Below, one piece after another: positions 4,205 to 31,090 of a DNA stretch of 37,951 nucleotides. The translations under genes and the position numbers were made by a program. The notes beneath the pieces are model-generated. The model ran no database searches, was not told where the DNA came from, and was given only the letters and a program-made list of their open reading frames with translations. The DNA is from Streptosporangiaceae bacterium. Its GTDB lineage: Bacteria; Actinomycetota; Actinomycetes; Streptosporangiales; Streptosporangiaceae. Each line of letters opens with the position of its first letter. Position 1 is the stretch's first letter. Location: NCBI GenBank assembly GCA_030044595.1, contig JASHVM010000052.1:1-37951 (forward strand), in the 5' to 3' direction.

Positions 4205-4227
4205 CGGCTCAGTGCTCGCGTGCCGGG

Positions 4228-5340: not shown

Positions 5341-5465
5341 CGACGCTCCTTCGGATGGGGTGACTGCTTTAACTCTTCCCCCAGGACCGCTCGATGATCA
5401 AGTCGGCGTCCTGGCCGACGGCGGGCGTAGCCGCTGCGGCCGGACGGGCACGCTGCCGCCCCGGC

Positions 5466-5885
5466 TCACCTGCGCCCGGCCGACTGGCGGGACCGCCTGT
5501 TATGCCGCGCGGAGAGGATCTGAGCCCCGGCGACCAGCAAGGCCATGAGGTAGAAGAACGTGAACATGGCGAAAGCGTAGGTATTGGTGAAGAAGGTGAC
5601 GGCCAGCGTGGCAACCGCGATCGCCACGCAGATGGCCGCCTTGACCGCGTTGCTCATCGGCGGCTTGTCCTGCGCCCGGACGGGCTGGACCCTGACCAGG
5701 CCGGCGGGGATGTCCATGGTGACCGCGGCCAGGTCCGCGTAGGTGCGCGAGGCGAGCACCTGGCCCAGCCGCGCGTCAAGCTCGTCCCTGCTCAGCCGGC
5801 CCTGCACGAACGCGGTCTTGAGGATCTCGATCACCTGGTCACGGTCGGCGTGAGAAGCCCGGAGACCGCCGCGGTCCGCGGCCAT
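5466..5885 (-). CDS. DUF1707 (SHOCT-like) domain membrane protein
   Basis: The internal ATG at 5885 gives MAADRGGLRASHADRDQVIEILKTAFVQGRLSRDELDARLGQVLASRTYADLAAVTMDIP, the typical DUF1707 N-terminus. Two hydrophobic helices follow. The upstream 69 codons of the track ORF look non-coding. Confidence 0.75.
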   Translation of the reverse strand: MAADRGGLRASHADRDQVIEILKTAFVQGRLSRDELDARLGQVLASRTYADLAAVTMDIPAGLVRVQPVRAQDKPPMSNAVKAAICVAIAVATLAVTFFTNTYAFAMFTFFYLMALLVAGAQILSARHNRRSRQSAGRR

Positions 5886-6147
5886 ACGCTTTCCCGGCCC
5901 TGCCGTCACGGAACCTCCCACGAACACGAGCAGGAAAAGCGTAACGCGGCGGCCGGAGGGCGAGCATCCCCAGCTACCGTCCCGGCGAAGACCAGACGGC
6001 GAGCAAGTCCTGCCGAAAGCCGCGGCCACGACGATTCCTCGCATCAAGCCGGGCACCGGGATGGCTGGCCTGAAGTCGTAAGAAAAGGTCATCCGATTAC
6101 ATGCGGCAACAAAATGCCCGAGTGCAGTGAATTACATCCAGGTAATC

Positions 6148-6231
6148 TGTGGATATGCTGTGAATGAACCTGCGGATAAACGCCGCCGAATGCGGACAAC
6201 TGCCCGGATTCTGTGGATATCGTGTGGACAG
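6148..6231. repeat. Array of five same-orientation DnaA-box-like 9-mers (TGTGGATAT, TGCGGATAA, TGCGGACAA, TGTGGATAT, TGTGGACAG)
   Basis: The 9-mers were read directly at 6148, 6171, 6191, 6212 and 6223, giving spacings of 23, 20, 21 and 11 nt. Each reverse complement is within one mismatch of TTATCCACA or TTGTCCACA. The array lies in a visibly AT-richer non-coding stretch. Confidence 0.45.
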
Positions 6232-6263
6232 CGGAAAAAACCAAAATGGTTTGCTGCAGGCCC

Positions 6264-6293
6264 TTGCGCAGCGCCCGCGGACACAGTAAAAAT
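6264..6293 (+). promoter_or_regulatory. Candidate sigma-70 (HrdB-type) promoter TTGCGC-N17-TAAAAAT
   Basis: The -35-like TTGCGC is at 6264-6269 and the -10-like TAAAAAT at 6287-6293. It points toward the hairpin-rich segment that ends in the strong terminator at 6449-6492. Confidence 0.35.
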
Positions 6294-6297
6294 GTCT

Positions 6298-6492
6298 TAC
6301 CGTTGGAAACGGGCACCACCCCGGGGGCGACCTCGGGAACGTGAGAGGAGCCGGGAGACCGGCCCCCCGCACGGGTACCTGGCACCGGCGGGCGGCGCGC
6401 AGTGTCGGCCAAGCCAGGCAACTGGCCGGCTGACGCGGCGAGGCCGGGCAAGGCCCCTCCATCTCATACATGGAGGGGCCTTGTCTGATTTG
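6298..6492 (+). ncRNA. Candidate structured small RNA of about 190 nt; family not recognised
   Basis: It is bracketed by the putative promoter and a terminator. It contains two GNRA-tetraloop hairpins: 6350-6363 (GCCGG-GAGA-CCGGC), and 6404-6434 (12 bp with a GCAA loop). There is no credible ORF and no RBS. Confidence 0.3.
6449..6492 (+). terminator. Strong hairpin, likely an intrinsic terminator
   Basis: CAAGGCCCCTCCAT (6449-6462) pairs perfectly with ATGGAGGGGCCTTG (6470-6483), giving 14 bp with a 7-nt loop. It is followed by GTCTGATTTG. The T-tract is weak, as is common in actinomycetes. Confidence 0.55.
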
Positions 6493-6711
6493 CCCTGGAA
6501 GGCATTCTGACCAGGACCGATGTGACGCGGCAACGCCGCCTGGACCGCGGGCCGCGGCGATCGCGGGGGCATGACCGAGACCCGGCACGACGGCGGGCGA
6601 AAGCTGCCGCACCGCCTCTCAGGCTCGCGCAGGACAGCCGGTCCAGCCCCCGAAACCTCAGCCGCCGCCCTGTCCCGGGCCTGCGACCGTGCGGGCCGGC
6701 TCACCGGCTTC

Positions 6712-6875
6712 TGTGCAGAAACATGTGGACCACTTGTGCAAAACGGGACTGAGGCTGTGCATACGTTGGGGAAATGCAGGGGATTTCTCGGCCGGGTGGT
6801 GTCCATAACGAGGCTTTCACCTGGCACATTGCCACCCACAGGCTGTGCATAGAGACAAATCTTAAATTGTCCACA
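6712..6875. repeat. Second cluster of TGTG(G/C)A-type 9-mers, including one perfect Streptomyces-type DnaA box TTGTCCACA
   Basis: The members are TGTGCAGAA 6712, TGTGGACCA 6724, TGTGCAAAA 6735, TGTGCATAC 6756, GTGTCCATA 6799, TGTGCATAG 6844 and TTGTCCACA 6867-6875. TTATCCGGT also occurs at 6923. Confidence 0.35.
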
Positions 6876-7232
6876 TGCCGCACCGCAATATCCCATAAAT
6901 GAACCGAAAATTTATCGCAAGTTTATCCGGTCGTGATTCAGGATGGGGACCGTAAATGTATTGAACCAAGAAACGGTTAGTCCGGGGGTGTTGAAAGCGG
7001 ACGGCACGTGCAGTGGCCGCACATGCGCGCCAAGGCAAACCAGGCGCTCGCTGACCGCAGGCCGCTTTCCCGCGTCGGCCCAGGACAGCAGCCCGGCAAG
7101 TTCACCGCCGCGCTGGCAGCACACAAGCCCAGCGCGCGAGGGACGCGCGGCGGCCACTCCGTCCGTCATCCCGACGTACGTGCCCGTCACGGGTGCCCGG
7201 CGCTCACCACTGGCTCAAACGGGAGGCCTGAC

Positions 7233-12157: not shown

Positions 12158-13192
12158 ATGAGCGCGGACGCGTCACTCCCAGCAGCCGCAGTTCCGGGGC
12201 TGAGGCGCAGTGACCCGCACGGTCCCGGGATCACCCGCGAGCGGGCCAGCGAAGGTTTCCGGTACCGGGATCCCTCGGGCGCGATCGTTGCGAGTGCCGA
12301 CACATTGCAGCGCATCGGTGCGCTCGTCATCCCGCCGGGCTGGAAGGACGTCTGGATCTCTCCGGACCCGCTCGGTCACATCCAGGCCACGGGCGTCGAC
12401 AGCCGGGGCAGGACCCAGTATCGCTACCACCAGTTGTGGCGAGAGCAGCGCGACGCCCAGAAGTTCGCGCACATGCTCCGGTTCGCCGACGCGCTGCCCA
12501 CGCTAAGGGCGGCCACCCTGCACGACCTGGGTGGCCGGCGCCTCGATCGTGATCGCGTGGCGGCCGGCGCCGTCCGGCTGATTGACCTCGGCCTGTTCCG
12601 CATCGGTGGGGAGAAGTACGCGGAACTGGACCACCACTACGGCGCGACGACGCTGCAGAAGCACGACGTGAAGGTCACGCGTGATGGCATCATGTTCGAC
12701 TACATCGCCAAGGAGGGCAAGCGCCGAACGATCGAGGTCAGCGACGAAGCGGTCCGGCCGACCGTACGTGCGCTGGTCCGCAGCGGCAACAGCCTGGACT
12801 CGCTGTTCAGTTATCGGGATGGCGGCACATGGCGGCCTCTGCACTCCTACCAGGTGAGCAGCTACATCGCCGAGCACGCTGGCGGCCACTTCACCGCCAA
12901 GGAGTTCCGCACCTGGAACGCCACCGTGCTGATGGCACTGCAGCTCGCGAACGCGAACCCGTCGCCGACCGCCAGGAGCCGTAAGAACGCCATCACCGCC
13001 GGCCTCCGCGGCGTCGCGGAGTGGCTGGGAGATACCCCTGCGGTGGCGCGCAAGTCCTACATCGATCCCCGGCTGATCAGCCGGTACGAGGCCGACGGGC
13101 GGCTGCCCACGATTCCCGTGTTGCCCGCCGTGCTCCCCGCCGCCGCGGAAGCCGAAATCGCGCTCGCCGCGCTGCTCGCGGGCGAGAGCTGA
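12158..13192 (+). CDS. DNA topoisomerase IB (bacterial poxvirus-like type)
   Basis: It carries FRYRDPSG, IPPGWKDVWISPDP, GHIQATGVDSRGRTQYRYH, FTAKEFRTWNATV and the catalytic-Tyr region ARKSYIDPRL. Confidence 0.88.
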   Translation: MSADASLPAAAVPGLRRSDPHGPGITRERASEGFRYRDPSGAIVASADTLQRIGALVIPPGWKDVWISPDPLGHIQATGVDSRGRTQYRYHQLWREQRDAQKFAHMLRFADALPTLRAATLHDLGGRRLDRDRVAAGAVRLIDLGLFRIGGEKYAELDHHYGATTLQKHDVKVTRDGIMFDYIAKEGKRRTIEVSDEAVRPTVRALVRSGNSLDSLFSYRDGGTWRPLHSYQVSSYIAEHAGGHFTAKEFRTWNATVLMALQLANANPSPTARSRKNAITAGLRGVAEWLGDTPAVARKSYIDPRLISRYEADGRLPTIPVLPAVLPAAAEAEIALAALLAGES

Positions 13193-15946: not shown

Positions 15947-17527
15947 TCAGGCCGTGGCGGCGATCATCGCGGCCGCCTTTTCGCCCACCATCACCGTCGG
16001 GGCGTTGGTATTGCCGTGCGGGATAACGGGGAACACCGACGCGTCAGCGACCCGCAGCCGCTGCACGCCGTGCACCCGTAGCTGTGGATCCACCACTCCG
16101 CTGGACTCGGTGCCGATCCGGGCGGTGCAGGCCGGGTGGTAGGTGTGCTCGACCTCGCGCCGGATGACCTTGTCGAGGGCCTGACGAGATGACGTGTCGC
16201 CGCCCGGGTGGATCTCACGGCCGACGAGCCCGCGAAGCGGCTCGGACGCGACGACCTGCCGGACCCGCTCGACGGCGGCGATCATCGCCTGCATGTCCTC
16301 GGGCTCTTTGAGGTAGTTGGCGGTGATCGCCGGCCTGTCCTTCGGGTCGCTGCTGCGCAACCGGACGTGGCCGGTACTCTGCGCTCCGACCAGCGAGCAG
16401 CCGATCCCCACCGCGGGAGCCGGGTAGGTGCGGAAGCCATGATCGTAGAAGTACCCGGGCGCGCAGATGTACTGCATGTCCGGGGCCGCGTCACCGGAGC
16501 GGGTGTGGAAGAACGCGCCCGCTTCGCCGATGTTGGAGGTCAGCAGCCCGGTCCGGCGGGTCAGGTAGGTCAGCAGCCACTTGGGTGATTCGGCCTCATG
16601 CAACGTTCCCTTGGCGGTGGCCTCCACGTTGACCAGGAACATCGGATGGTCCATGTAATGGTCGCCCACGTTGGGGTTGTCCACGATCACGCTGACGCCG
16701 TGCTCGGCCAGGTGATCGGCGGGACCGACACCGGAGAGCATCAGCAGCTGGGGAGTGTTGATCGCCCCCGCAGAAACGATGACCTCCCTGGTGGCCCTGA
16801 TGAACCCGACCTGGCCGTCCCGCTCGGCTTCGACGCCGACTGCGGCGCCGTTATCGATCCGCACCCTGAGCACCAGCGTGTTGGTCAGGACGCTGAAGTT
16901 ACCGCGCTTGCGGGCCGGCTTGATGTAGCCGTCGGCGGTTGTCCACCGCATCCCCCTGCGCTGGGTCACCTGGTACAGGCCCGTGCCGAGCTGATCGGCC
17001 CCGTTGAAGTCGTCGTTCGCCTCCAGGCCGGTGGCGGCGATCGCCTCGACGAGCTTGAGGCTCATCGCGTTCGGGGACCGGAGGTCCTGGACGTAAAGCG
17101 GACCGTTGTCGCCGTGGTATTCGTCGGCGCCGCGGGAGTTGTTCTCCGACTTGCGGAACAGCGGGAGCACGTCCGCGTACGACCATCCGGCGGCCCCGTC
17201 CTTGGCCCAGGTGTCGTAGTCGGCCTTGTTACCGCGGATGTAGATCATGGCGTTCATCGACGAGCAGCCGCCGAGCATCTTGGCTCTCGGCATGAAGATC
17301 CTCCGCCCGCCCAGGTACTGCTCGGGCTCGGAGAAGTAGGCCCAGTCCAGCTTGGTCTTGAACTGCTTGGAAAACGCCGCGGGCACTTGCACGTTCATAT
17401 GCCTGTGGCTGCCGCCGGCCTCGATGAGCAGCACCTTGTTGTCGGGTGATTCCGACAGCCGGGCGGCCACGACTGCGCCAGCCGAGCCCGCGCCCACCAC
17501 GATGTAGTCGAAGGAAGTCATGGTCAT
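15947..17527 (-). CDS. GMC family FAD oxidoreductase (choline/alcohol dehydrogenase-like)
   Basis: The ATG at 17527 (ATGA overlap with the ALDH stop) gives MTMTSFDYIVVGAGSAGAVVAARLSESPDNKVLLIEAGG. The C-terminal part has the GMC signature HPACTARIG...VADASVFP. The upstream 104 codons of the track ORF overlap the ALDH gene. Confidence 0.9.
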   Translation of the reverse strand: MTMTSFDYIVVGAGSAGAVVAARLSESPDNKVLLIEAGGSHRHMNVQVPAAFSKQFKTKLDWAYFSEPEQYLGGRRIFMPRAKMLGGCSSMNAMIYIRGNKADYDTWAKDGAAGWSYADVLPLFRKSENNSRGADEYHGDNGPLYVQDLRSPNAMSLKLVEAIAATGLEANDDFNGADQLGTGLYQVTQRRGMRWTTADGYIKPARKRGNFSVLTNTLVLRVRIDNGAAVGVEAERDGQVGFIRATREVIVSAGAINTPQLLMLSGVGPADHLAEHGVSVIVDNPNVGDHYMDHPMFLVNVEATAKGTLHEAESPKWLLTYLTRRTGLLTSNIGEAGAFFHTRSGDAAPDMQYICAPGYFYDHGFRTYPAPAVGIGCSLVGAQSTGHVRLRSSDPKDRPAITANYLKEPEDMQAMIAAVERVRQVVASEPLRGLVGREIHPGGDTSSRQALDKVIRREVEHTYHPACTARIGTESSGVVDPQLRVHGVQRLRVADASVFPVIPHGNTNAPTVMVGEKAAAMIAATA

Positions 17528-19224
17528 CCTCGCAGTGCCGAGGCGAATAGGGCGGGCAGCTTCGCTGCCGATGGCGCCGCGGCGAACTCCGTGAGTTTGC
17601 GGGCGGTGGACTCGGAGGTCTTGTTGGTCAGGAACCACGGCGGCTTGGGGAACAGGGTGTTTTCGCCGGCCGTGATCGAGCGCGGGAACGGGTGGAACGG
17701 TGCGGACACCACGGTCTTGAGCGGCTTGTCGAACATCAGCGCGTTGTGTACCACCCCGATGCCCGATTGCACGTCGGTGTAGGTGTGACCGGGGTAGGCG
17801 CCCCAGGCGGCGCGGGGGATCAGGAACGCAGCAGCCGACCACGCGTTGATCCCGATGCCCCCGTACCGCAGGGCTGCGATGGCGCGGTCGAATTCCTCGC
17901 CGAGCTCGCGTCGCGTCTTCGGGTGCACGATCAGGTTCACCGATAGCGTCCCGTACAGCCTGTCGTTGCAGAACTCGACGGCGTGCCGGAGGAACTCCGC
18001 CGCGTCCCCCGGCAGCGACGTCGTCACCATGGCCGGCGCGAAGAACTCGTTACGGAACCCGTAGTGGTCCAGGCCCGGATCCAGGTCGGCCACGAACACC
18101 CGTTTCGCACCGCCGCCCAGCACCTCGGCGGCGGGCTCGGCTTGCTGCAGCGCGCTCAGCCGCTGCTCGGTACCGGGGTAGTAGGCGGGCCTGGGTTCGG
18201 AGTCGTCCAGCCCGCGCCGGACCTGTTGCAGCATCTTGGCGCGGCCGTCCCAATCGGCGGGAAGGATGAGGACCTGGCTGGCGACGCAGTTGTGCCCGGA
18301 GTTGTGCAGCTTCTGCGTGACGGCGTGATCGGCCTGATACCGGAAGTCGGCGTCGGTCCACGGCCCGGGCAGCACGATGGTCCCGCCGACGCCGCCGAGC
18401 TCGGAGTTGATCGGCTTGCCGACGACTCGGTCGTCGGCTGCCTTGCGCCGTTCGCCGTCCTCCCCCGGGCCGTACACGACCAGGTCGTGGGTGCGGGCGC
18501 TGCCGGTGATGTGGATGGCCTGCACCGCGTCGTGACGGGTCAGGTACTCACCCACGTCGGCGCCGCCGTAGACGAAGGCCAGGTACCCGTCACGTATCAG
18601 CTGGGCGAAGACGTCCTCGAAGATCGGCCCGAGGTACTCGTTGACCGGGTTCATCTTGCAGATCACGACCTCACCGCAGTTGATCATGCGGTCGAGGATG
18701 TCCAGCGGCACGATGGCCGAGACGTTGCCGGCGCCCAGCACCAGGGCCAGTTTGCCCTCGGGATCCTCCCGGCGGTAGAAGCCGGCCATGTTCTGGCGCA
18801 GGTTCTGCTCGGTCACGCCGTCTTGCATCCACACGTCCGCGGTGACGCCGTGGAACAGCAGTTCCTCGTAGACGTCGTACGGAAGCACCCGGGCGACCAG
18901 CGTGCCGTCGACGCTGCGGCGCAGCTTGACGTGCTCCAGCAGATCCGCGTCCGTGTTGAGGTCGGTGAGGGTCTGGATCGACGCCGAGAGCCACGCCACC
19001 ACCCCGTACGGGCCGGCCAGCCACGCCTCGGCGCCGACCAGGGGCGAGCCGGCCTGCAACTGCTTGGCCTTGGTCTCGGCGTCAACCCAGCGCTGCGCGT
19101 TGGCCAGCGTGGCCTGGCGGACCTCGGTCAGGTACTGGATCTTGTCCTTGATCGGCAGCCGCGCCCACATCGTCGTGTGGTCGGCGAGCTTGGCCAAAAG
19201 CTGATCCAGATGTTGGGTGTCCAC
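17524..19224 (-). CDS. Aldehyde dehydrogenase superfamily protein (long, about 566-aa form)
   Basis: It has the ALDH-like segment ELGGVGGTIVLPG and the Cys region NSGHNCVASQVLILP, plus LVLGAGNVSAIVPLD. It is the first gene of a two-gene operon with the GMC oxidoreductase. Confidence 0.75.
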   Translation of the reverse strand: MDTQHLDQLLAKLADHTTMWARLPIKDKIQYLTEVRQATLANAQRWVDAETKAKQLQAGSPLVGAEAWLAGPYGVVAWLSASIQTLTDLNTDADLLEHVKLRRSVDGTLVARVLPYDVYEELLFHGVTADVWMQDGVTEQNLRQNMAGFYRREDPEGKLALVLGAGNVSAIVPLDILDRMINCGEVVICKMNPVNEYLGPIFEDVFAQLIRDGYLAFVYGGADVGEYLTRHDAVQAIHITGSARTHDLVVYGPGEDGERRKAADDRVVGKPINSELGGVGGTIVLPGPWTDADFRYQADHAVTQKLHNSGHNCVASQVLILPADWDGRAKMLQQVRRGLDDSEPRPAYYPGTEQRLSALQQAEPAAEVLGGGAKRVFVADLDPGLDHYGFRNEFFAPAMVTTSLPGDAAEFLRHAVEFCNDRLYGTLSVNLIVHPKTRRELGEEFDRAIAALRYGGIGINAWSAAAFLIPRAAWGAYPGHTYTDVQSGIGVVHNALMFDKPLKTVVSAPFHPFPRSITAGENTLFPKPPWFLTNKTSESTARKLTEFAAAPSAAKLPALFASALRG

Positions 19225-19518
19225 GGTGGTCTCCTCGGCTCGCCGGGCGTCACGTCGGCACGTTGGCCCCAGCCTGCTGATATTGCCACGCTAATCCCTG
19301 CCGCCGAGCCTTGCCAGCGGCAAACACGATGCGCGAGACACCTTGCCTCAGCGCGGGCCTGGCGTATCGGATAGGCATTATGGCGCGATCGAGGCATACA
19401 TGATGCATCCCGGGTAGGCCAGCTGGGAAGGGCACATGTCGCAGCCGTCACACGCCAAGGTCGCGCCGCGACCAGACAGGACGGCCGCAGCAGGCCAGGT
19501 TCGTTCCGGAGGTGATCC

Positions 19519-21528
19519 ATGAAACCGTTCGTGATCAACCGGCATGGCCGCCTGGTGTTCCCCGCTAATTTCCTCGGCGACCTGGACTTCTCGGTCCTGG
19601 ATACGCTCGATCAGTTCACCGCGGTGATCGGGCGGGATTTCGAGGCGAAGGCGCCGACAGGAACCGACCTGCTCGCCCGCGTCGAGTCCGGGGCGTACAC
19701 CAGGCGCTTTGAGCTGCTGCGCGACCTGGGCCAGAACCTGTACTGGGCCAACCGCTACTCCATCACGATGTTCGACAGGCGGCCGACGCGCTGGCGCGAC
19801 CTCGCGAAGCGGCGCGACGACATCTTCCTGCCCATCCTGACCCCGTGGGAGGACCGTGAGCGCAAGGTGGCCGCGGTCGAACGCGCCTTCCGGTCACTGC
19901 CGGCGACGTGGGACGCCGAGACCGAGAACACCATCTTCGACCTGCTGTTCGACCTGTTCAGGAACAAGCTGTACCACGCGACGGAACTGCCGGCGATCAA
20001 GCCGACGGTGGCCGAGTTCCTGGACCAGCCCGGCGCGCTGACGTTCGTCATGCCCGCCTGCGACCCGGACTACCCGGTCTTCCGGATCGAGGACATCCTC
20101 GACGCCGATGAGAGCGTGCCCGAGCTGGAAGCGCTCATGCGCTGGGCGATGGTGCTGCACAACCAGTACCCGTGGGATCGCTCCCGCACCGAGCTACGCG
20201 GGCCGGCCGACATCGGCGACGACGACTTCGTGGTTGCCTTCCACCCGCGTAACCGCGACGTGATGGCCTTCATCGAGCGGGTCAAGCGCCAGGAAACCGC
20301 GGCCGGCCGTGCGGTCCTGGGGAGGGTGGAAGCGGTTGAGGAGGTCGAAGGGGTGGGAGGGGTCGAAGGGGTGGAAGGGGTCGCGCCCGCCGCGCCGTAC
20401 CCGCCCGTACGGGTGCGGGAAGCGTTCGCGGTCCAGCCGAAGCTCGAGGCGCTGGCGATCGTGCGCGGCGAGCATGTCTGCGACAACACCGACGTGATCA
20501 GGAACGCGAGCTTCTCCTGGTCGCCGATGAGCGCCGACGAGATCAGCGCCAAGACCGGCATCCGGCAGCGCCGCTACACCAGCCGGGAGCCCGAGCGGCT
20601 GGCGCTTTACGCGGCCAGGGCGGCGCTGGCGAAGTCCGGCCGCTCCCCCAGCGACATCGGCGCCGTACTGGTCAGCACCTGCACGAGCAACCGGCAGATC
20701 CCGTCGACGGCGTGCTGGCTGTCCGGCGAGCTTGGCTTGCTGCAGACGCACGCCTCGGCCGACCTGGTGGCGGCCTGCGCCGGGCTGCCCTACGGGCTGG
20801 CCGAGGCCATCCGCCAGCTCCAGGAGGTCAACCGGCCTGTCCTGCTGGTCTGCGTGGAAAAGTTCTCCGACAAGATCGGCAGCGTCCGCACCTCCCGGAT
20901 GATCTTCGGGGACGGGGCCGCGGCGATGGTCATCACCCCGGCACCGGCGCGGGAGGCGGGGGACGTGGTAGTCGTGCAGACTTACGCGAGCGGGCCGCAC
21001 AGCGAGGTCAACTCGATCATCTGGCCGAACCCCGAATTCGACGGTGACATCACCGTGTACGGTCCGGAGGTCAAGTCGCTGGTCCAGCGCTACCTGGTCC
21101 AGATGCTCGACGAGCTCGGCGCGCAGCCGGATCCGGACGACCCGCGGCGGACGCTGCTGGAAAGCATCGAGCTGATCATCCCGCACCAGGCCAACAAGAC
21201 CATGATCCTCAACCTGGCCGACAAGGCCGGGCTGTCCGCTGACCATCTGTACTTCAACGTCGAAAGGATGGGCAACGTGTCCGCAGCGAGCATTCCGATC
21301 GCGGTCCACGACGCCGTACGCGACGGCGTGATCACCCGTCCGACCCGGGTCTTCGCACCGGGCTTCGGGGCCGGCGCGGTCGGCGGTTACGCCGTGATGC
21401 GGGTCGACCCGGCGATCGTCGCCGATGAGGTAGTGCTGGATGTCCTCCCGGACGCCCGCCGGGCCGGGGTGGCAGCTCAGCGGGCGGGAAGTACGACAGA
21501 CGACATCCGCGCCGCCTTCGGCGGGTAG
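19519..21528 (+). CDS. Fusion protein: unrecognised N-terminal domain (about 270 aa), Gly/Val/Glu repeat linker, and a KAS III (FabH-like 3-oxoacyl synthase III) domain
   Basis: GGAGG (19508-19512) sits 6 nt upstream of the ATG. The C-terminal half has KAS III triad contexts: Cys in DLVAACAGLPYG, His in IIPHQANKTM and Asn in ERMGNVSAASIPIA. I recognise no family in the N-terminal half (MKPFVINRHGRLVFPANFLGDLDF...). Confidence 0.85.
   Translation: MKPFVINRHGRLVFPANFLGDLDFSVLDTLDQFTAVIGRDFEAKAPTGTDLLARVESGAYTRRFELLRDLGQNLYWANRYSITMFDRRPTRWRDLAKRRDDIFLPILTPWEDRERKVAAVERAFRSLPATWDAETENTIFDLLFDLFRNKLYHATELPAIKPTVAEFLDQPGALTFVMPACDPDYPVFRIEDILDADESVPELEALMRWAMVLHNQYPWDRSRTELRGPADIGDDDFVVAFHPRNRDVMAFIERVKRQETAAGRAVLGRVEAVEEVEGVGGVEGVEGVAPAAPYPPVRVREAFAVQPKLEALAIVRGEHVCDNTDVIRNASFSWSPMSADEISAKTGIRQRRYTSREPERLALYAARAALAKSGRSPSDIGAVLVSTCTSNRQIPSTACWLSGELGLLQTHASADLVAACAGLPYGLAEAIRQLQEVNRPVLLVCVEKFSDKIGSVRTSRMIFGDGAAAMVITPAPAREAGDVVVVQTYASGPHSEVNSIIWPNPEFDGDITVYGPEVKSLVQRYLVQMLDELGAQPDPDDPRRTLLESIELIIPHQANKTMILNLADKAGLSADHLYFNVERMGNVSAASIPIAVHDAVRDGVITRPTRVFAPGFGAGAVGGYAVMRVDPAIVADEVVLDVLPDARRAGVAAQRAGSTTDDIRAAFGG
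20326..20379 (+). repeat. Three tandem 18-nt coding repeats (GTCGAAGGGGTGGRAGGG) forming the G-rich linker VEAVEE/VEGVGG/VEGVEG
   Basis: The units were read directly at 20326-20343, 20344-20361 and 20362-20379. Confidence 0.85.
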
Positions 21529-21532
21529 CGGG

Positions 21533-24500
21533 ATGAGCCAGCGGCCTGCCTTCGAGCGCATTGCGGTCGTCAACCGGGGCGAGCCCGCGATGCGGCTGAT
21601 CAATGCCGTGCGGGAGTGGAACGCCGAGGGGCGGCCCGCCCTGCGCGCCATCGCCGTCTACACCGCCGCCGACCGGCGGGCGACGTTTGTCCGTGAGGCC
21701 GACGAGGCGGTGCTGATCGGCCCGGACCCGTCCTCCGGTGACGACGCCGGGTTCAGCGCCAGCCCCTATCTCGACTACGCCGAGCTGGAGCGCGCACTGC
21801 GGCAGTGCCGGGCGGACGCGGTGTGGCCCGGCTGGGGGTTCGTTTCGGAGAAGGCCGAGTTCGTGGAGCTGTGTGACCGACTCGGGATCACCTTCATCGG
21901 CCCCTCCGCCGAGGTCATGCGCAGGCTGGGCGACAAGATCGGGGCTAAGCGGCTGGCCGAGCAGGTCGGGGTGCCGCTCGCCCCGTGGAGCGGCGGCCCG
22001 GTGGCCGATCTCGGACAGGCCCGCGCCCGGGCCGAATCGATCGGCTACCCGCTGATGGTCAAGGCCACCGCGGGCGGCGGCGGGCGGGGCATCCGGCTGG
22101 TGCGCTCCGCCGAGCAGCTCGATGAGGCCTTCGAGCGCGCGCGGTCCGAAGCGGCGAAGACGGCCGGGGACGCGACAGTCTTCCTGGAGCAGGCGATCCG
22201 CGGCGGCCGGCACGTCGAAGTGCAGGTGATCGCCGACGCCGAGGGCACCGTCTGGGCGCTGGGCACCCGGGATTGCAGCGTGCAGCGGCGCAATCAGAAG
22301 GTGATCGAGGAGTCCGCTTCGGCGGCGCTCAGCGACGAGCAGGAGCAGCTGCTGCGCGCGCATGCCGCCGACCTGATCCGGGCCGCCGGGTACGTCAACG
22401 CCGGGACGGTGGAGTTCCTCTACGAGCCGGGCAAGCGGCTGCTGTCGTTCCTTGAGGTCAACACCCGGCTCCAGGTCGAGCACCCGGTCACCGAGATGAC
22501 CACCGGCGTAGACATCGTCAAGCTGCAGCTGCATATCGCGGCGGGCGGCACGCTCGCCGCGATCGGCTCCGCCGCGCCGCCGCCGCGCGGGCACGCGATC
22601 GAGGCCCGGCTCACCGCCGAGGACGCGGAGCGCGATTTCGCGCCCGCGCCGGGCCTGATCGAGCACCTGGCCCTGCCGGCCGGCCCCGGCATCAGGGTCG
22701 ACACCGGGGTGGCGCCGGGTGACGTCATCCCGCCGCAGTTCGATTCCATGATCGCCAAGGTGATCGCCTGGGGCCGGGACCGCTCCGAGGCCCGGGCCAG
22801 GCTCTCCCGTGCGCTCAGGCAGACCGCGACGGTAATCCAGGGCGGAACCACGAACAAGGCCTTCCTGCTCGACCTGCTGGACCGGCCGGAATTCATCCGC
22901 GGCGAGGTGGACACCACCTGGCTGGATGCGATCATGGCCGACGGCTACGCGCCGCCACGACGGGTCGACGTCGCCCTGCTGGCGACCGCCTTCGAGGCGT
23001 ACGAGGCGCACGCGCGACGCCAGCAGGACCACCTGTTCGCCTCCGCCGAGCGCGGGCGTCCCGAGGTCGGCCACGAGACGTGGTACCAGGTCGACGTCCG
23101 TGCGGGTGGTGAGGCCTACCGGCTGCGGGTGTCGCGCAGCCGTCCCGTCCGGTACCACGTGGAACTGGACGGGCGCTCGGTGGAGGTCGATGTCGAGCGA
23201 TCCGGCCGGTTCGAGCTCAGGCTGAGCGCGGGCGGCCAGACCTTCGACGTGCTCTCGGTCGCGCAGGGCCCGGACTACCTGGTGGAGGTCGACGGCGCGG
23301 TGCACCGGATCTCCGGCGGCGAAGCCGGGCTGGTCCGAGCCCCGGCCCCGGCGATGGTGGTGGCCGTCCCGGTCGTGGTCGGCGCGGAGGTCGCGGACGG
23401 CGACGTCGTGGCCATCGTCGAGAGCATGAAACTGGAGACTGCGCTGCGCGCCCCGATCGCCGGGCGGGTCGCCGAGGTGTTCGCTGACGTCAACACCCAG
23501 GTCGAGAGCGGCGCCAAGCTGCTCCGGATCGAGCAGGATTCCGACCAGCCCGCAGAGGCGGAAGCGGGGGCTCGGGGCGATCTGTCCGCGCTGGCCGGTG
23601 AGGGTGCCCCAGCCCCCGGCGACCCGGTCTTGACCGCCGCCGACGCGCTGGTCGCCCTGCGCTCCCTGGTTCTCGGCTTCGACGTGGACGAGCAGGAGGC
23701 CAGACGGCAGCTGCGCAGGTTGGCGACGGCGCGGGCGGACCTGGCCGCGGACGACCCGCGGCTGCTCGCCGGGGAGGCCAAGATCCTGCAGATCTTCGCC
23801 GACTTGTCCGCGCTGTGGCGCAACCGCCGGGACGCTGGCGAGGCCGAAGCCGAGGTGGCCGTCGACGATGAGGCCGCCCGCAATCCGCAGGAGTACCTGC
23901 ACGCGTACTTGCGTTCCAGGGACGCCGACGTCGAAGGGCTACCCGAATCTTTCCGGATCCGGCTGCGGCGGACGCTGGCGCACTACGGTATTACCGAGCT
24001 AGCCGCCTCGCCCGGCCTGGATCCGGCGCTGTACCGGATTGTCCTTGCCCACCGCCGGGCGGCCGCGCACGCGCCGATCGTGTCGGAACTGCTGCGGTGG
24101 CGGCTGGACCACCCGGAATCCCTGCCCGATGAGGCTCGCGACGACTACCGGCGGGTGATCGACCAGCTCGTGTCGGCCACCCAGCTGCGCCACCCCGGGG
24201 TCGGCGACCTGGCCCGGCAGGTCCGCTACCGCTGTTTCGACGCCCCGCTGGTCGCCGCCGAGCGGACCCGGGCCCTACAGCAGGTACGCGCGGAACTCGA
24301 CCGTTTGTCGCCGGAACCCGAGGCCAGGGCGGCTCAGATCGACGCGATCGTCGCCTCGGGCGAGCCGATCCTCGGCGTTTTCGCCGCGCGGCACCATCCG
24401 GTCATGCTCGAGGTGATGACCCGGCGGTACTACCAGATCAGGCCACTGCGCCACGTCCGGGTCAGCGAGCGGAACGGCCGGCCGCTGCTGACCGCGGAGT

Positions 24501-27142
24501 ACGCCCACGGCGGACACGACTACCAGGTGATCGCGACCGTCGCCGAGGGTAGCGAAAGCGCCGCCGAGACCGACCTGCCTCAGCTGGTCGACGCGCTCCC
24601 GCCCGGCCGGACCGCGCTCATCGATCTCTACGTAACCTCCCACACGCCCGAAGACAAAGCCGACCCGGACGCCAGGGCGGACCGGATCCGCGGCAAGCTC
24701 GGCACCGTCCCGCCCGCGGTCGGGCGGGTCGCGGTGGCGGTGCGCAGGCCAGACGGCGCAGAAGGTGACGGGCCGACCTGGTTTACCTTCGGCCGGGGCC
24801 CGGACGGGGTGCTGGCGGAAGATCGCACTCTGCGCGGCCTGCACCCGCTGGTAGCCGAACGGCTCGGCGTGTGGCGGTTGTCAGGGTTCGAGCTGACCCG
24901 GCTGCCCTCGGCCCCGGACGTGCACCTGTTCCGAATCCAGGGCCATAAGGTACCGGGTGATCAGCGGCTCATCGCGCTTGCCGACGTGCGCGACCTGACC
25001 ATCGTGCGCGACCAGGACGGACAGATCCGCGGCCTGCCGCAGATCGAGCAGATCCTCGACGCCTGCCTGGACAGCCTGCGTTCGGTCCGCTCCGCCGACC
25101 GCGAGCTGGCCAAGCTGGACTGGAACCGCATCCAGGTTTACGTCTGGCCGGCCGTCGACGCGCCGCTCGCCGAATTCAACCAGGTCATCAGGTCACTCGC
25201 GGCGCGCACCGGAGCGCTGGGCCTGGAGGAGGTGCTGGTCCAGTTCCGTGCCGCCGAACGCGGCGGCGAATCCCGCGAGCTGATGCTGCGGATGTCCCGC
25301 CCGCCGGGCGCCGGGCTGACGGTGCGCATCACCGATCCGCCGCCGCAGCCGTTGCGCGAGCTGAACTCCTATACGCAGAACGTGATCCGGGCCCGCCGCC
25401 GGCGTGCCGTCTACCCCTATGAGCTCGTCCCGATGATCACCCGCTCGCCGGACCGGGACGGCACGGCCGGCGTATTCACCGAATACGACCTCGACGACGC
25501 TGGCGCGGCGGTCCCGGTGGACCGCGCTCCAGGGTCGAACAGCGCGAACCTGGTACTGGGCGTGGTGAGCACGCCGACCAGGCGCTACCCGGAGGGGATG
25601 CGCCGGGTGGTCCTGCTAGGCGACCCGACCCGCGCGCTGGGCGCGCTCGCCGAACCGGAGTGCCGGCGGGTGCTCGCGGCGATCGACCTGGCGCGGCGCC
25701 TGCACGCCCCGGTGGAGTGGTTCGCCATCTCGGCGGGGGCGAAGATCGCCATGGACTCCGGCACCGAGACCATGGACTGGATCTCCCGGGTACTGCGCGG
25801 CATCGTCGAATTTACCCAGGACGGCGGCGAGATCAACGTCGTGGTCACCGGGATCAACGTCGGCGCGCAGCCGTACTGGAACGCCGAGGCCACCATGCTC
25901 ATGCACACCAAGGGCGTCTTGATCATGACCCCGGACTCGGCCATGGTGCTGACCGGGAAACAGTCGCTCGACTACTCCGGCGGAGTGTCGGCCGAGGACA
26001 ACTTCGGCATTGGCGGCTATGACCGGATCATGGGCCCGAACGGCGAGGCTCAGTACTGGGCGCCGGACATATCCGCCGCCGTCGACGTGCTGCTGGCGCA
26101 CTACGAGCACGTGTACGTCGCCGCGGGCGAACGCTTTCCCCGGCCGGCCCCGACGGCCGATCCCGCCGACCGGGATATTACCGGCTCGCCGCACGCCGCA
26201 CCGGGCAGCAGCTTCAGCGAGCTCGGCGAGATCTTCGATCCCGCTACGAACCCGGAGCGCAAGCAGCCCTTCGACGTGCGCTCGCTGCTGCGCGGCGTGA
26301 TCGATGCCGACCACCCGCCCCTCGAGCGCTGGGCCGACATGCAGGATGCCGCCTCGGTCGTGATACTCGACGCGCACCTGGGCGGGCAGCCGGTCGCCTT
26401 GATCGGGTTCGAATCGCGGCCGTTGCCGCGGCACGGACCCCATCCCGTGGACGGCCCGTCGCAGTGGACGGCCGGCACGCTGTTTCCCCGCTCGTCCAAG
26501 AAGACGGCGCGCGCGATCAACGCCGCCAGCGGGAACCGGCCGCTGGTGATCCTGGCCAACTTGTCGGGATTCGACGGCTCACCGGAGTCGCTGCGCCAAC
26601 TCCAACTGGAATACGGCGCGGAGATCGGCCGCGCGGTGGTCAACTTCGACGGCCCGATCGTGTTCTGCGTGGTTTCCCGTTACCACGGCGGCGCGTTCGT
26701 GGTGTTCTCCGGGACGCTCAACGACAACATGGAGGTCGCCGCCGTTGAGGGCTCGTACGCGTCGGTCATCGGCGGCGCGCCCGCCGCCGCAGTCGTGTTC
26801 GCCGCCGACGTCAACAAGCGCACGGCCGCCGATACCCGGGTGGCCGGCCTGCGGACCAGAATCGCCGCGGCCACCGCCGACGGTGACCACGACGAGGAGT
26901 CCCGGCTGCGCACCGAACTGGCGGCGGTCTGGCCTGCGGTGCACTCCGAGATGCTCGGACGGGTCGCCGACGAGTTCGACGACCTGCACAGCATTGAACG
27001 GGCTCGCAGCGTGGGCTCGGTCGACACCATCGTTCCTGCCGCGGGGCTGCGGCCCTACCTGATCGGGGCCGTACAGCGAGGAATGCGAAAGACGCTCGCG
27101 GCGCCCGTCGGCCTCACACCTCAGTCTGCAAAGCCGGGCTGA
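21533..27142 (+). CDS. Single-chain multidomain biotin-dependent acyl-CoA carboxylase (BC, BT-like, BCCP, central region, CT); eukaryote-type ACC architecture
   Basis: The ATG at 21533 lies 4 nt after the KAS III stop. The BC domain shows RIAVVNRGEPAMRLINA, GYPLMVKATAGGGGRGIRLV and LEVNTRLQVEHPVTE. The BCCP domain has VAIVESMKLET, with the biotinyl-Lys codon at 23429-23431. The CT domain shows VVLLGDP...GINVGAQPYWNAEATM, ANLSGFDGSPESLR and VSRYHGGAFVV. The protein is 1869 aa. Confidence 0.9.
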   Translation: MSQRPAFERIAVVNRGEPAMRLINAVREWNAEGRPALRAIAVYTAADRRATFVREADEAVLIGPDPSSGDDAGFSASPYLDYAELERALRQCRADAVWPGWGFVSEKAEFVELCDRLGITFIGPSAEVMRRLGDKIGAKRLAEQVGVPLAPWSGGPVADLGQARARAESIGYPLMVKATAGGGGRGIRLVRSAEQLDEAFERARSEAAKTAGDATVFLEQAIRGGRHVEVQVIADAEGTVWALGTRDCSVQRRNQKVIEESASAALSDEQEQLLRAHAADLIRAAGYVNAGTVEFLYEPGKRLLSFLEVNTRLQVEHPVTEMTTGVDIVKLQLHIAAGGTLAAIGSAAPPPRGHAIEARLTAEDAERDFAPAPGLIEHLALPAGPGIRVDTGVAPGDVIPPQFDSMIAKVIAWGRDRSEARARLSRALRQTATVIQGGTTNKAFLLDLLDRPEFIRGEVDTTWLDAIMADGYAPPRRVDVALLATAFEAYEAHARRQQDHLFASAERGRPEVGHETWYQVDVRAGGEAYRLRVSRSRPVRYHVELDGRSVEVDVERSGRFELRLSAGGQTFDVLSVAQGPDYLVEVDGAVHRISGGEAGLVRAPAPAMVVAVPVVVGAEVADGDVVAIVESMKLETALRAPIAGRVAEVFADVNTQVESGAKLLRIEQDSDQPAEAEAGARGDLSALAGEGAPAPGDPVLTAADALVALRSLVLGFDVDEQEARRQLRRLATARADLAADDPRLLAGEAKILQIFADLSALWRNRRDAGEAEAEVAVDDEAARNPQEYLHAYLRSRDADVEGLPESFRIRLRRTLAHYGITELAASPGLDPALYRIVLAHRRAAAHAPIVSELLRWRLDHPESLPDEARDDYRRVIDQLVSATQLRHPGVGDLARQVRYRCFDAPLVAAERTRALQQVRAELDRLSPEPEARAAQIDAIVASGEPILGVFAARHHPVMLEVMTRRYYQIRPLRHVRVSERNGRPLLTAEYAHGGHDYQVIATVAEGSESAAETDLPQLVDALPPGRTALIDLYVTSHTPEDKADPDARADRIRGKLGTVPPAVGRVAVAVRRPDGAEGDGPTWFTFGRGPDGVLAEDRTLRGLHPLVAERLGVWRLSGFELTRLPSAPDVHLFRIQGHKVPGDQRLIALADVRDLTIVRDQDGQIRGLPQIEQILDACLDSLRSVRSADRELAKLDWNRIQVYVWPAVDAPLAEFNQVIRSLAARTGALGLEEVLVQFRAAERGGESRELMLRMSRPPGAGLTVRITDPPPQPLRELNSYTQNVIRARRRRAVYPYELVPMITRSPDRDGTAGVFTEYDLDDAGAAVPVDRAPGSNSANLVLGVVSTPTRRYPEGMRRVVLLGDPTRALGALAEPECRRVLAAIDLARRLHAPVEWFAISAGAKIAMDSGTETMDWISRVLRGIVEFTQDGGEINVVVTGINVGAQPYWNAEATMLMHTKGVLIMTPDSAMVLTGKQSLDYSGGVSAEDNFGIGGYDRIMGPNGEAQYWAPDISAAVDVLLAHYEHVYVAAGERFPRPAPTADPADRDITGSPHAAPGSSFSELGEIFDPATNPERKQPFDVRSLLRGVIDADHPPLERWADMQDAASVVILDAHLGGQPVALIGFESRPLPRHGPHPVDGPSQWTAGTLFPRSSKKTARAINAASGNRPLVILANLSGFDGSPESLRQLQLEYGAEIGRAVVNFDGPIVFCVVSRYHGGAFVVFSGTLNDNMEVAAVEGSYASVIGGAPAAAVVFAADVNKRTAADTRVAGLRTRIAAATADGDHDEESRLRTELAAVWPAVHSEMLGRVADEFDDLHSIERARSVGSVDTIVPAAGLRPYLIGAVQRGMRKTLAAPVGLTPQSAKPG

Positions 27143-27376
27143 CGATCAGGGCACGCTGATCAGCCGGCGCAGCAGGACCGGGATACTTACCAGGTCCCCG
27201 CGCGCCGCCGCGACCAGCAGGTCCAAGAGATCTGGCGTGGTCTGCCGGGGCGGTTCGGCGATCTCGATGCGAGCGGCTACGACGGACCCGAGCGATTGGG
27301 TCTCGACCCGGCCCAGGCTGGGTAACGATCCGGGCCTGCGGGCGGGTGGTCGGGCGGGTGGTTCGACGGGTTGCGC

Positions 27377-28207
27377 TCAGCCGGTGGTGCGTCGGCGGTA
27401 GAGGAGGGCGGCGAGGGGGACGCAGATGACCAGGAGCGCGACGGACCACAGCAGCGAGGCGGCTACCGGGTGCTGCATGGGCCAGGCGTGGATGGTCGCC
27501 GAGGGATTGGGGTTGCCCCACAGCTGGCGGGCGGCGGCGGTTACCGCGCTGACTGGGTTCCAGTCGGCGATGACCCGCAGGACGGTGGGCATGTGCTGGG
27601 TGGGGACCAGGCCGTTGGAGACGATGGCCAGCGGGAAGAGGATAACCAGGCCGACGCCCTGTGCTGATTCGGGGCCCTTGCTCACGATGCCGAGGCAGCC
27701 GCAGCCCCAGGATAGGGCGTAGCTGAAGAGCAGGAACAGGGCGAACCCGGCCATGACCGGCGGGATGCTGGCGTCGGGGCGCCAGCCGATGACCAGGCCG
27801 GTGACGGCGACGATGAGCGTGCACAGGGCGGCCGTCGACAGGTCAGCCAGGGATCGTCCGACGAGCACGGCGGCCCGCCACATGGGGAGGGTCCGGAAGC
27901 GGTCGATGACGCCGGTGTTCAGGTCGGTGCTCAGCCCGACCGCGGTGCCCATCGCCGAGGTAGTGAGGTTCAGCGCGAGCAGCCCGGCGATGGCGAAGTC
28001 TTTATAGCTGCCGCCGCCGGGCAGGACGACCCCGGAGCCGAACACGTAGACGAACAGCAGCGTGAACAGTACCGGCTGGATGGTGACGTCGGAGAGCTGC
28101 AGCGGCTCGCGCGCGATGTGCACGAGGTTGCGGCCGGTCAGGACGAGGACATCGGCGAACCGCCGCCCGAGGTGGCGCGGTGGCGCCGGGAGGGTGGCTA
28201 GGGTCAT
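27377..28207 (-). CDS. ABC-2 type transporter permease (DrrB-like)
   Basis: The ATG at 28207 forms an ATGA overlap with the ATPase stop. It gives a 276-aa protein with about six hydrophobic spans. The 432-aa track ORF is an artefactual N-terminal extension through the ATPase gene. Confidence 0.85.
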   Translation of the reverse strand: MTLATLPAPPRHLGRRFADVLVLTGRNLVHIAREPLQLSDVTIQPVLFTLLFVYVFGSGVVLPGGGSYKDFAIAGLLALNLTTSAMGTAVGLSTDLNTGVIDRFRTLPMWRAAVLVGRSLADLSTAALCTLIVAVTGLVIGWRPDASIPPVMAGFALFLLFSYALSWGCGCLGIVSKGPESAQGVGLVILFPLAIVSNGLVPTQHMPTVLRVIADWNPVSAVTAAARQLWGNPNPSATIHAWPMQHPVAASLLWSVALLVICVPLAALLYRRRTTG

Positions 28208-30706: not shown

Positions 30707-31090
30707 CTATTCGACCACGGCCGCTTCCAGCCGCGCTCGCTCGGTTTCGCTGAACGGGACTGGCTGCCGGTGACCAGGGTCCCAGCGGACCGTGACGACG
30801 CGCGCCTCGGCCGCTACCTCCCCCGATGGGGTCAGGATCGTCTCGCGGGTGGTCAGGCTCGTGGTCCCCAGGCGCTCGGCCTCTATCCGCACAGTCACCT
30901 GCTGGTCTGGGTGACGGACCTCCGCCCGCAGGTCCACTTCGAGCCGAGCGACCACATAGCTGGGATCTCCCACGGCCTGGGTGTAAAAAGCGTCCCTGCC
31001 CTCCTCGAGGTAGGTCAGGAAGACGGCGTGGTTGACGTGGCCCTGGGCGTCGGTGTCACGCCACCTCACATGGACAAGGTGCTCGAACAT
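30707..31090 (-). CDS. Acyl-CoA thioesterase, hotdog fold (YbgC/4HBT-like)
   Basis: The sequence VRWRDTDAQGHVNHAVFLTYLEEGRDAF is typical of the 4HBT-type catalytic Asp region. The protein is 127 aa. Confidence 0.85.
   Translation of the reverse strand: MFEHLVHVRWRDTDAQGHVNHAVFLTYLEEGRDAFYTQAVGDPSYVVARLEVDLRAEVRHPDQQVTVRIEAERLGTTSLTTRETILTPSGEVAAEARVVTVRWDPGHRQPVPFSETERARLEAAVVE

Follow-up and report, generated by a model that had tools for sequence, protein, structure and literature searches.

A KAS III fusion protein with an orphan N-terminal domain, linked in actinomycetes to a multidomain acetyl-CoA carboxylase: a possible acetoacetyl-CoA synthase

The DNA described here is a contig of 37,951 nucleotides from a Streptosporangiaceae bacterium (GenBank assembly GCA_030044595.1, contig JASHVM010000052.1), and this whole stretch is called the window below. 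Two neighbouring open reading frames (ORFs) on its forward strand are the subject of this report. The first, ORF A, encodes a fusion of an N-terminal domain with a domain of the β-ketoacyl synthase III (KAS III) type, and the second, ORF B, encodes a single-chain biotin-dependent carboxylase. The pair is composed of the following features.

19508..19514, + strand: ribosome-binding site GGAGGTG, read from the sequence, with the ATG of ORF A 4 nt downstream
19519..21528, + strand: ORF A, 669 amino acids (aa), with N-terminal domain, linker, KAS III domain and a weakly conserved C-terminal tail (ORF list, translation)
19519..20319, + strand: N-terminal domain of A, residues 1–267, mixed alpha/beta (AlphaFold2)
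20320..20406, + strand: disordered Gly/Val/Glu-rich linker, residues 268–296 (predicted local distance difference test, pLDDT, below 50 at residues 267–296)
20407..21423, + strand: KAS III (thiolase-fold) domain, residues ~297–635 (Pfam ACP_syn_III, ACP_syn_III_C)
21526..21535, + strand: A/B junction TAG-CGGG-ATG, 4 nt from the stop of A to the start of B
21533..27142, + strand: ORF B, 1869 aa, single-chain biotin-dependent acyl-CoA carboxylase (Pfam architecture, PDB matches of the carboxyltransferase region)
21551..22930, + strand: biotin carboxylase domain, residues 7–466, with the GGGGRG loop from residue 181 (22073) (Pfam, sequence)
23333..23530, + strand: biotin carboxyl carrier protein (BCCP, biotinyl) domain, Biotin_lipoyl, residues 601–666 (Pfam)
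24719..25213, + strand: part of the non-catalytic central region matching ACC_central (PF08326), residues 1063–1227 (Pfam)
25595..27049, + strand: carboxyltransferase (CT) domain, Carboxyl_trans, residues 1355–1839 (Pfam)

The TAG of ORF A (21526–28) and the ATG of ORF B (21533) are thus separated by CGGG. Both ORFs have the coding-type composition of a high-GC genome, with a GC content at third codon positions (GC3) of 0.90–0.91 (ORF A 0.91), and the GC content of the window, about 0.65–0.74, is usual for actinomycetes. A promoter and terminator scan of 19000–27600 gave nothing informative. The pair had been pointed out in an earlier note made from the sequence alone (the original prediction), whose ORF coordinates and 4-nt spacing are confirmed by sequence reading. 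The tight coupling of the two genes which it described holds as well; the adjacency recurs in relatives. It had furthermore stated that the window contains no gene for an acyl carrier protein (ACP), a malonyl transferase, a polyketide synthase (PKS) or a ketoreductase, dehydratase or enoylreductase (KR/DH/ER). This was borne out: a Pfam scan of the 29 other ORFs of the window showed none of these, and tblastn of the window with ACP and FabD queries gave no match.

In ORF A, Pfam assigns residues 415–484 to ACP_syn_III and residues 548–628 to ACP_syn_III_C. The predicted Cys/His/Asn triad is intact and consists of Cys420 in AACAGL (20776–78), His556 in PHQAN (21184–86) and Asn586 in GNVSAAS (21274–76). 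This triad and the same GDGA motif region are shared with FabH, but A is twice as long owing to its orphan domain. Both NCBIfam models for FabH score below their cutoffs (NF006829, 173 versus 249; TIGR00747, 146 versus 292). Matches of A in the PDB are confined to residues ~325–630 and are all best to FabH, the top one being Aquifex FabH with 127 bits. The enzymes of Aquifex, Yersinia, Vibrio and Escherichia coli reach about 105–128 bits and the actinobacterial ones about 80–84 bits. Since the KAS domain is nearer to the Aquifex and proteobacterial than to the actinobacterial enzymes, it does not represent the vertically inherited actinobacterial fabH. A Foldseek search with the full-length model of A returned FabH structures only.

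The residue-level feature that sets A apart lies directly behind the catalytic histidine. When A is aligned to the solved FabHs of Aquifex, Yersinia and Vibrio (FabH1 and FabH2), the motif reads HQAN-[LVI]-R-I in these four enzymes versus HQAN-K-T-M in A, so that Thr561 (21199–201) stands opposite the arginine of HQAN-x-R. The string PHQANKTM is at least 90–98% conserved over 75 members of the family of A, and Lys560, beside Thr561, is invariant. We take the arginine position to be that of Arg249 of E. coli FabH, the principal ACP-docking residue, a role that Zhang and co-workers are said to have described in 2001. Two further positions differ from Yersinia FabH in the alignment. A has nothing opposite the Trp of the Yersinia DEWI motif, which we take to be Trp32 of E. 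coli FabH, the residue that stacks on CoA, and in the xPS motif it has Ile where Yersinia FabH has Phe, presumably the equivalent of E. coli Phe87, which limits the size of the primer pocket.

The most unusual feature of the locus is the N-terminal domain of A, which is an orphan without family assignment and which the original prediction had not set apart as a domain of its own. Based on an alignment of family members, AlphaFold2 models residues 1–270 with a pLDDT of 91.4 and a predicted template modelling score (pTM) of 0.87. Over the 75 family members the conservation is 0.82 in this domain versus 0.86 in the KAS domain; R39, D40, R68, W76, R79, R91, D101, W110 and K116 are invariant and H214 is nearly so (at least 90%). 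No match was obtained with Pfam at E ≤ 10 for residues 1–300, with the PDB by single sequence or family profile, or with BFVD by Foldseek. NCBIfam and a word-indexed protein search gave nothing outside the family, and Foldseek against the PDB found no structural relative (best E 5.4, TM 0.1–0.2). A profile of the domain yielded 414 matches among 1.84 billion (1.84e9) representative proteins, and all those examined are members or fragments of this family. One differing architecture came up in this search, P0253 (881 aa), which carries the N-terminal domain, KAS III and a C-terminal short-chain dehydrogenase/reductase (SDR) on a single chain. If it is real and not an assembly read-through, it is a Rosetta-stone fusion tying A to a reductase. 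Another protein, P0282, in which the end of a CT domain is joined to the start of the N-terminal domain, is probably an artefact.

The linker between the two domains of A contains a 9-bp tandem repeat at 20324–20381 (6.4 copies, consensus GGGTGGAAG; Tandem Repeats Finder), which encodes a part of it, VEAVEEVEGVGGVEGVEGV. Because the linker is weakly conserved in the family alignment, the repeat may expand and contract by slippage. Shorter ORFs homologous to A (342–521 aa) occur in four long-contig metagenome-assembled genomes (MAGs; L081, L082, L084 and L085), and there the rest of the KAS domain was found in the next called ORF or by tblastn. Proteins of about 400–540 aa with the N-terminal domain were considered as alternative architectures; as KAS continues downstream in the four that were looked up, they were treated as frameshift artefacts. 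Such frameshift-like splits call for caution over apparent stand-alone N-domain proteins in databases.

ORF B combines biotin carboxylase, BCCP, central region and CT on one chain, and the GGGGRG loop and the ESMKLE lysine codon of the original prediction are confirmed by Pfam and by the sequence. Biotin_carb_N, CPSase_L_D2 and Biotin_carb_C together cover residues 7–465, and ESMKLE starts at residue 630, with the codon AAA of the biotin-accepting Lys633 at 23429–23431. The match to ACC_central reaches 34.6 bits versus a cutoff of 23.2, with only part of the model covered. In the PDB the CT region (residues 1101–1869) matches 20 entries of eukaryotic acetyl-CoA carboxylase (ACC) with 58–85 bits, and the sole bacterial match is an ACC beta-chain with 29 bits; this eukaryotic affinity is a similarity ranking in a database search and not a phylogeny. 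The eukaryotic ACC plan seen in the original prediction is therefore real, as domain order, central region and CT affinity indicate, though it is already explained by a known family.

This family was described with SACE_4237 of Saccharopolyspora erythraea, a multidomain ACC of about 200 kDa that forms homodimers and is homologous to eukaryotic ACC from end to end, the central region included (Livieri et al. 2019; PMC6491548). SACE_4237 carboxylates only acetyl- and propionyl-CoA, both equally well. It is essential for de novo fatty-acid synthesis, oleate rescues the mutant, and the enzyme is needed for the incorporation of 14C-acetate into lipids (PMC6491548). Its orthologues occur in Micromonosporaceae, Pseudonocardiaceae, Nocardiopsaceae, Streptosporangiaceae and other families (PMC6491548), the taxa where relatives of A and B were found. 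Like this family, ORF B is one chain in the order biotin carboxylase, BCCP, eukaryote-type central region and CT, its biotinylation site lies within the BCCP domain, and its CT is nearest to that of eukaryotic ACC. Judged by its architecture, ORF B thus fits the actinobacterial multidomain (eukaryote-like) ACC family. It adds nothing new beyond one more member, and the idea of an uncharacterised single-chain layout is superseded by the description of 2019. A dedicated carboxylase, as had been proposed, is not supported either, since the characterised relative is an essential general ACC, which argues against such a role of ORF B. Unlike the published account, ORF B sits 4 nt behind a KAS III fusion gene; PMC6491548 is silent on a neighbouring KAS III gene, and sace_4237 was handled there with its own native promoter.

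Another class of bacterial single-chain biotin-dependent carboxylases, the carboxylases of long-chain acyl-CoA (LCC), was considered for ORF B and ruled out by domain order, central region and CT affinity. According to PMC6491548, LCC enzymes are smaller, carry CT N-terminally and the biotin carboxylase and BCCP domains C-terminally, do not have a central region, form hexamers and prefer long chains. In ORF B, by contrast, the domains run in the reverse order, a central region is present and the CT is of the eukaryote type.

Relatives of A are widespread. In a scan of one genome per species they were confirmed at 573 genomic sites, and more than 3900 database proteins match A, those among the matches listed (120) being all full length and 81–100% identical. 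The 80 best loci, with 67–85% identity to A, belong to several actinomycete families and come from Streptosporangiaceae-like MAGs, Nocardiopsis, Pseudonocardia, Actinomycetospora, Frankiaceae and Micromonospora. The families carrying A are those carrying the multidomain ACC. A search for plasmid carriage of A gave no match. For the gene neighbourhood a set of 85 loci with flanks of 8–10 kb was used, 76 of them evaluable with enough flank, and these show the following arrangements.

38 of 76 loci: B directly after A
7 loci, within the 38: order A-B-SDR
4 loci, within the 38: related SDR divergent upstream
19 of 76 loci: SDR directly after A, no B adjacent
2 of 76 loci: SDR directly before A
17 of 76 loci: neither B nor SDR within the flanks (8 kb)

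Conservation of A and B as neighbours, which had been named beforehand as a test of the original prediction, was thus found in half of the evaluable loci and in several actinomycete families. The A-B loci span Streptosporangiaceae-like MAGs, Nocardiopsis, Pseudonocardia and Frankiaceae, and their A-to-B gaps are short (8–215 nt as estimated by tblastn). The reductase is the second recurrent partner: it lies directly beside A in 21 of the 76 loci and beside A or A-B in 28, to which the four divergent upstream copies are added. The SDR copy of locus L064 reaches 310 bits on TIGR01829, the model for acetoacetyl-CoA reductase, and so passes its cutoff of 302, but on the FabG model TIGR01830 it falls short (287 versus 298). 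For two more distant copies TIGR01829 is the best match, yet they stay under its cutoff.

A Pfam census of the nearest other neighbours (n = 137) counted SDR 17 times, TetR 11 times and AMP-binding 6 times, and four of these six AMP-binding proteins are acetyl-CoA synthetases (ACAS_N). Neither acpP nor fabD nor fabF was found beside A in this census, and tblastn with the ACP and FabD queries detected no acpP or fabD homologue within 8–10 kb of A in the 85 loci. In two loci the surroundings point to polyhydroxyalkanoate (PHA) metabolism. L025 comprises phaC (PhaC_N and an alpha/beta hydrolase domain), an SDR and an acetyl-CoA synthetase, followed divergently by A and B. L082 comprises an SDR, a family III CoA-transferase and A, facing a PHB-depolymerase-type esterase (PHB, poly-3-hydroxybutyrate), an SDR, phaC and an Ala-rich 204-aa protein. 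No thiolase gene (PhaA) was found in these two phaC clusters. The 204-aa protein beside phaC in L082 (16093–16704, − strand) is Ala/Thr-rich without a Pfam match and could be a phasin-like granule protein of actinomycetes. In L085, one MAG, a MatC/CitMHS-type dicarboxylate carrier, a family III CoA-transferase and A follow each other on the same strand behind a GntR regulator (2865–7054); carrier and CoA-transferase might form a route from malonate to malonyl-CoA that feeds A. Two loci of the Micromonospora type, L045 (4104–5186) and L072 (7559–8731), contain two tandem KAS III-like genes for proteins of about 350–400 aa, which are convergent downstream of SDR-A and make up a cluster of their own (c19).

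The explanation that we regard as the best, with about even chances of being correct, is based on gene context and one residue-level feature and sees in A an acetoacetyl-CoA synthase that depends on malonyl-CoA and acts as NphT7 does, while standing outside the NphT7 family. A and B would form a co-expressed, ACP-independent unit which first carboxylates and then condenses. B, as the eukaryote-style acetyl/propionyl-CoA carboxylase of the organism, would make malonyl-CoA and, by analogy with SACE_4237, would probably feed fatty-acid synthesis too. Acetyl-CoA would load Cys420 of the KAS III domain, and A would condense the acetyl group decarboxylatively with malonyl-CoA instead of malonyl-ACP, yielding acetoacetyl-CoA as in the NphT7 reaction. 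The PhaB-type reductase found beside A or B in relatives, which in this organism would be encoded elsewhere, if it is present at all, could then form (R)-3-hydroxybutyryl-CoA. In at least some relatives a PHA synthase would polymerise this product, so that the sink would probably be the storage polyester PHB. The net effect would be an ATP-driven, irreversible stand-in for the PhaA thiolase step. Substrates, product, physiological sink and any contact between A and B are what we infer here. Compared with the PhaA-PhaB-PhaC route, a PhaB-type reductase and twice a PhaC-type synthase cluster with A or A-B in relatives, but these clusters do not contain PhaA, and the condensing enzyme in them is the KAS III fusion. 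Chemistry of this kind has reportedly been assembled artificially by Lan and Liao (PNAS 2012), who are said to have engineered ACC plus NphT7 as a malonyl-CoA bypass; the proposed A/B chemistry equals this ATP-driven bypass.

Signs that A does not use ACP are Thr561 in place of the FabH arginine, the conservation of PHQANKTM and the fact that neither acpP nor fabD lies nearby. A resembles NphT7 in the KAS III fold, the triad and the missing arginine after HQAN, and its gene setting likewise points to CoA esters rather than ACP. A passage in PMC5432608, citing the original NphT7 study, attributes the lack of KAS III activity in NphT7 to the loss of an ACP-binding arginine, and an AGGSR motif of NphT7 is proposed there for CoA recognition. 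Unlike NphT7, which belongs to a mevalonate cluster, A is linked to ACC, PhaB and PhaC genes, and it has the additional N-terminal domain of about 270 aa. To the NphT7 sequence (UniProt D7URV0, Streptomyces sp. CL190; verified as exact) A is 29% identical and aligns with 92 bits, versus 127 bits to Aquifex FabH. Of the NphT7-like, CoA-dependent Claisen condensation in the original prediction, the chemistry is thus strengthened by the PhaB-type neighbour, the two phaC loci without thiolase and Thr561, but the family placement is not: as AGGSR is missing and the 29% identity is no closer than that to FabH, A falls outside the NphT7 family.

Several observations weigh against acetoacetyl-CoA synthesis by A. 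Its KAS domain is no nearer to NphT7 than to true FabHs, and opposite PAGGSRQP of NphT7 it shows a gap and the region IIWPNPEFDG, a segment conserved in the family. The invariant Lys560 could stand in for the missing arginine in ACP docking. As B's characterised relative has an essential housekeeping role, the adjacency of A and B could reflect fatty-acid synthesis, and the strong conservation of A looks, as far as sequences tell, more like a core than an accessory function. Scores hardly separate PhaB-type from FabG reductases, and a PHA synthase lies in the flanks of only 2 of the 85 loci. The window itself holds neither the PhaB-type reductase nor a PHA synthase, and in 17 of the 76 loci neither B nor this reductase is near A. 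In addition, literature searches returned no biochemistry and no paper on any member of the A family.

These points lead to a rival in which A would be a FabH-type initiator of type II fatty-acid synthesis. It would use acyl-CoA and malonyl-ACP for the condensation and be expressed together with the housekeeping ACC; the SDR would be a 3-oxoacyl-ACP reductase of the FabG type and the N-terminal domain a lineage-specific regulatory or docking add-on. We consider it unlikely, though to be taken seriously. It agrees with the role of SACE_4237 as the essential ACC of de novo fatty-acid synthesis, with genuine FabHs as best PDB matches of the KAS domain, with the high scores of the SDR on FabG models too, with the very strong conservation and wide spread of A (573 genomic sites) and with an invariant Lys560 adjoining the position of the missing arginine. 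Set against this, A stays under both NCBIfam FabH cutoffs, has Thr for the arginine of HQAN-x-R and lies beside acpP or fabD in 0 of 85 loci. The KAS domain is moreover matched better by Aquifex and proteobacterial enzymes than by the vertical actinobacterial fabH, the L064 reductase is accepted by the model for acetoacetyl-CoA reductase but not by the FabG equivalog, and PHA synthase, PHB-esterase and acetyl-CoA synthetase are the neighbours in L025 and L082. A CoA-dependent KAS III with another product, which we judge improbable, would use propionyl-, butyryl- or other short- or medium-chain starters together with malonyl- or methylmalonyl-CoA, extenders that B can make. Its 3-oxoacyl-CoAs would enter PHA copolymers, the ethylmalonyl-CoA/butyryl-CoA pools or another lipid or metabolite, and the N-terminal domain might select or deliver the starter. 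Such a role would suit the equal use of acetyl- and propionyl-CoA by SACE_4237, the acyl-CoA ligases and CoA-transferases that recur by A, and the Ile in the xPS motif where Yersinia FabH has Phe. However, the conserved reductase partner belongs to the acetoacetyl-CoA type, the recurring acyl-activating neighbour is an acetyl-CoA synthetase (ACAS_N), and no sequence feature of A points specifically to larger starters.

Much less can be said for two further readings. That A and B are independent housekeeping genes which happen to stand side by side in some lineages is highly improbable: the adjacency recurs over several actinomycete families with all flanking genes differing, A-B-SDR alternates with A-SDR as if B had been inserted into an operon, and the gap in the window is 4 nt. 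The 17 loci with neither B nor SDR within 8 kb of A and the handling of the S. erythraea carboxylase gene with its own native promoter are what speaks for it. The original prediction had also considered a head-to-head condensation by A, of the OleA, mycolate or alkylpyrone-forming kind, with a long acyl-CoA that B has carboxylated, and this we find scarcely credible. General thiolase-fold kinship exists, OleA structures matching A marginally (E ~1e-3 over ~100 residues) and the pyrone-forming CorB at E 2.7e-10, but FabH-type enzymes match far better than either. The layout of B differs from that of the long-chain LCC class, the characterised carboxylase SACE_4237 accepts short chains only, and A has no conserved neighbour of the kinds OleBCD, FadD32, Pks13 or acyl-AMP ligase. 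Condensation of the OleA/mycolate type was thus ruled out by weak similarity, by the missing partner genes in the window and among the recurrent neighbours, and by the short-chain specificity of SACE_4237.

As to the N-terminal domain, a specific binding function is suggested, speculatively, by how conserved it is, by the charged residues among its invariant ones and by its occurrence with this KAS domain only. Our guess is that it binds a substrate or partner (for example a CoA ester, or the carboxylase by docking) and does not catalyse a known reaction. That it is a new fold which docks KAS III onto the carboxylase or its product, and in this way channels malonyl-CoA into ACP-free acetoacetyl-CoA synthesis, is a conceivable but doubtful extension of this guess.

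The other scanned ORFs of the window have functions unrelated to the A/B pair, and no synteny of these genes with A and B was found in relatives. They encode an acyl-CoA ligase, an acyl-CoA dehydrogenase, a MoxR/VWA pair, alcohol dehydrogenases, a topoisomerase IB, a DUF72 protein, a GMC oxidoreductase, an aldehyde-dehydrogenase-like protein, an ABC-2 exporter, TetR and MFS proteins and a hotdog thioesterase. The topoisomerase gene (12158–13192, + strand; Top1B_N_bact and Topoisom_I) belongs to the bacterial type IB, which is relatively uncommon in bacteria. The ORF of the GMC oxidoreductase (15947–17842, − strand) overlaps, as listed, by about 300 bp with a 566-aa ORF (17524–19224, − strand) that has only a partial Aldedh match, so one of the two start codons is probably mis-assigned. 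Both are divergent from ORF A and show no synteny with A in relatives. The thioesterase is a small protein of the hotdog fold (4HBT_2; 30707–31090, − strand) and is encoded 3.5 kb downstream of ORF B, past the ABC-2 exporter and TetR genes.

Literature searches for the fusion, for KAS III in operons with ACC or PhaB and for native acetoacetyl-CoA synthase routes to PHB returned no description. Two things were accordingly found nowhere described: the widespread fusion of KAS III to an orphan N-terminal domain that is confidently predicted to fold, and its conserved linkage to a multidomain ACC and a PhaB-type reductase, occasionally to PhaC, with no thiolase. The N-terminal domain, with about 270 residues, well folded, conserved and without relatives outside the family, is a clean target for structural and functional discovery. 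If the proposed acetoacetyl-CoA synthesis is true, a native set of ACC, KAS III and reductase would be a natural counterpart of the engineered ACC and NphT7 bypass and would provide new parts for the engineering of PHB, butanol and isoprenoids. Many soil actinomycetes would then spend ATP, by ACC and a subsequent decarboxylative condensation, for acetoacetyl-CoA, and this ATP-driven route would replace the thermodynamically unfavourable thiolase reaction in PHB and C4-CoA metabolism. Reconstructions of carbon storage and C4-CoA metabolism in these organisms would change.

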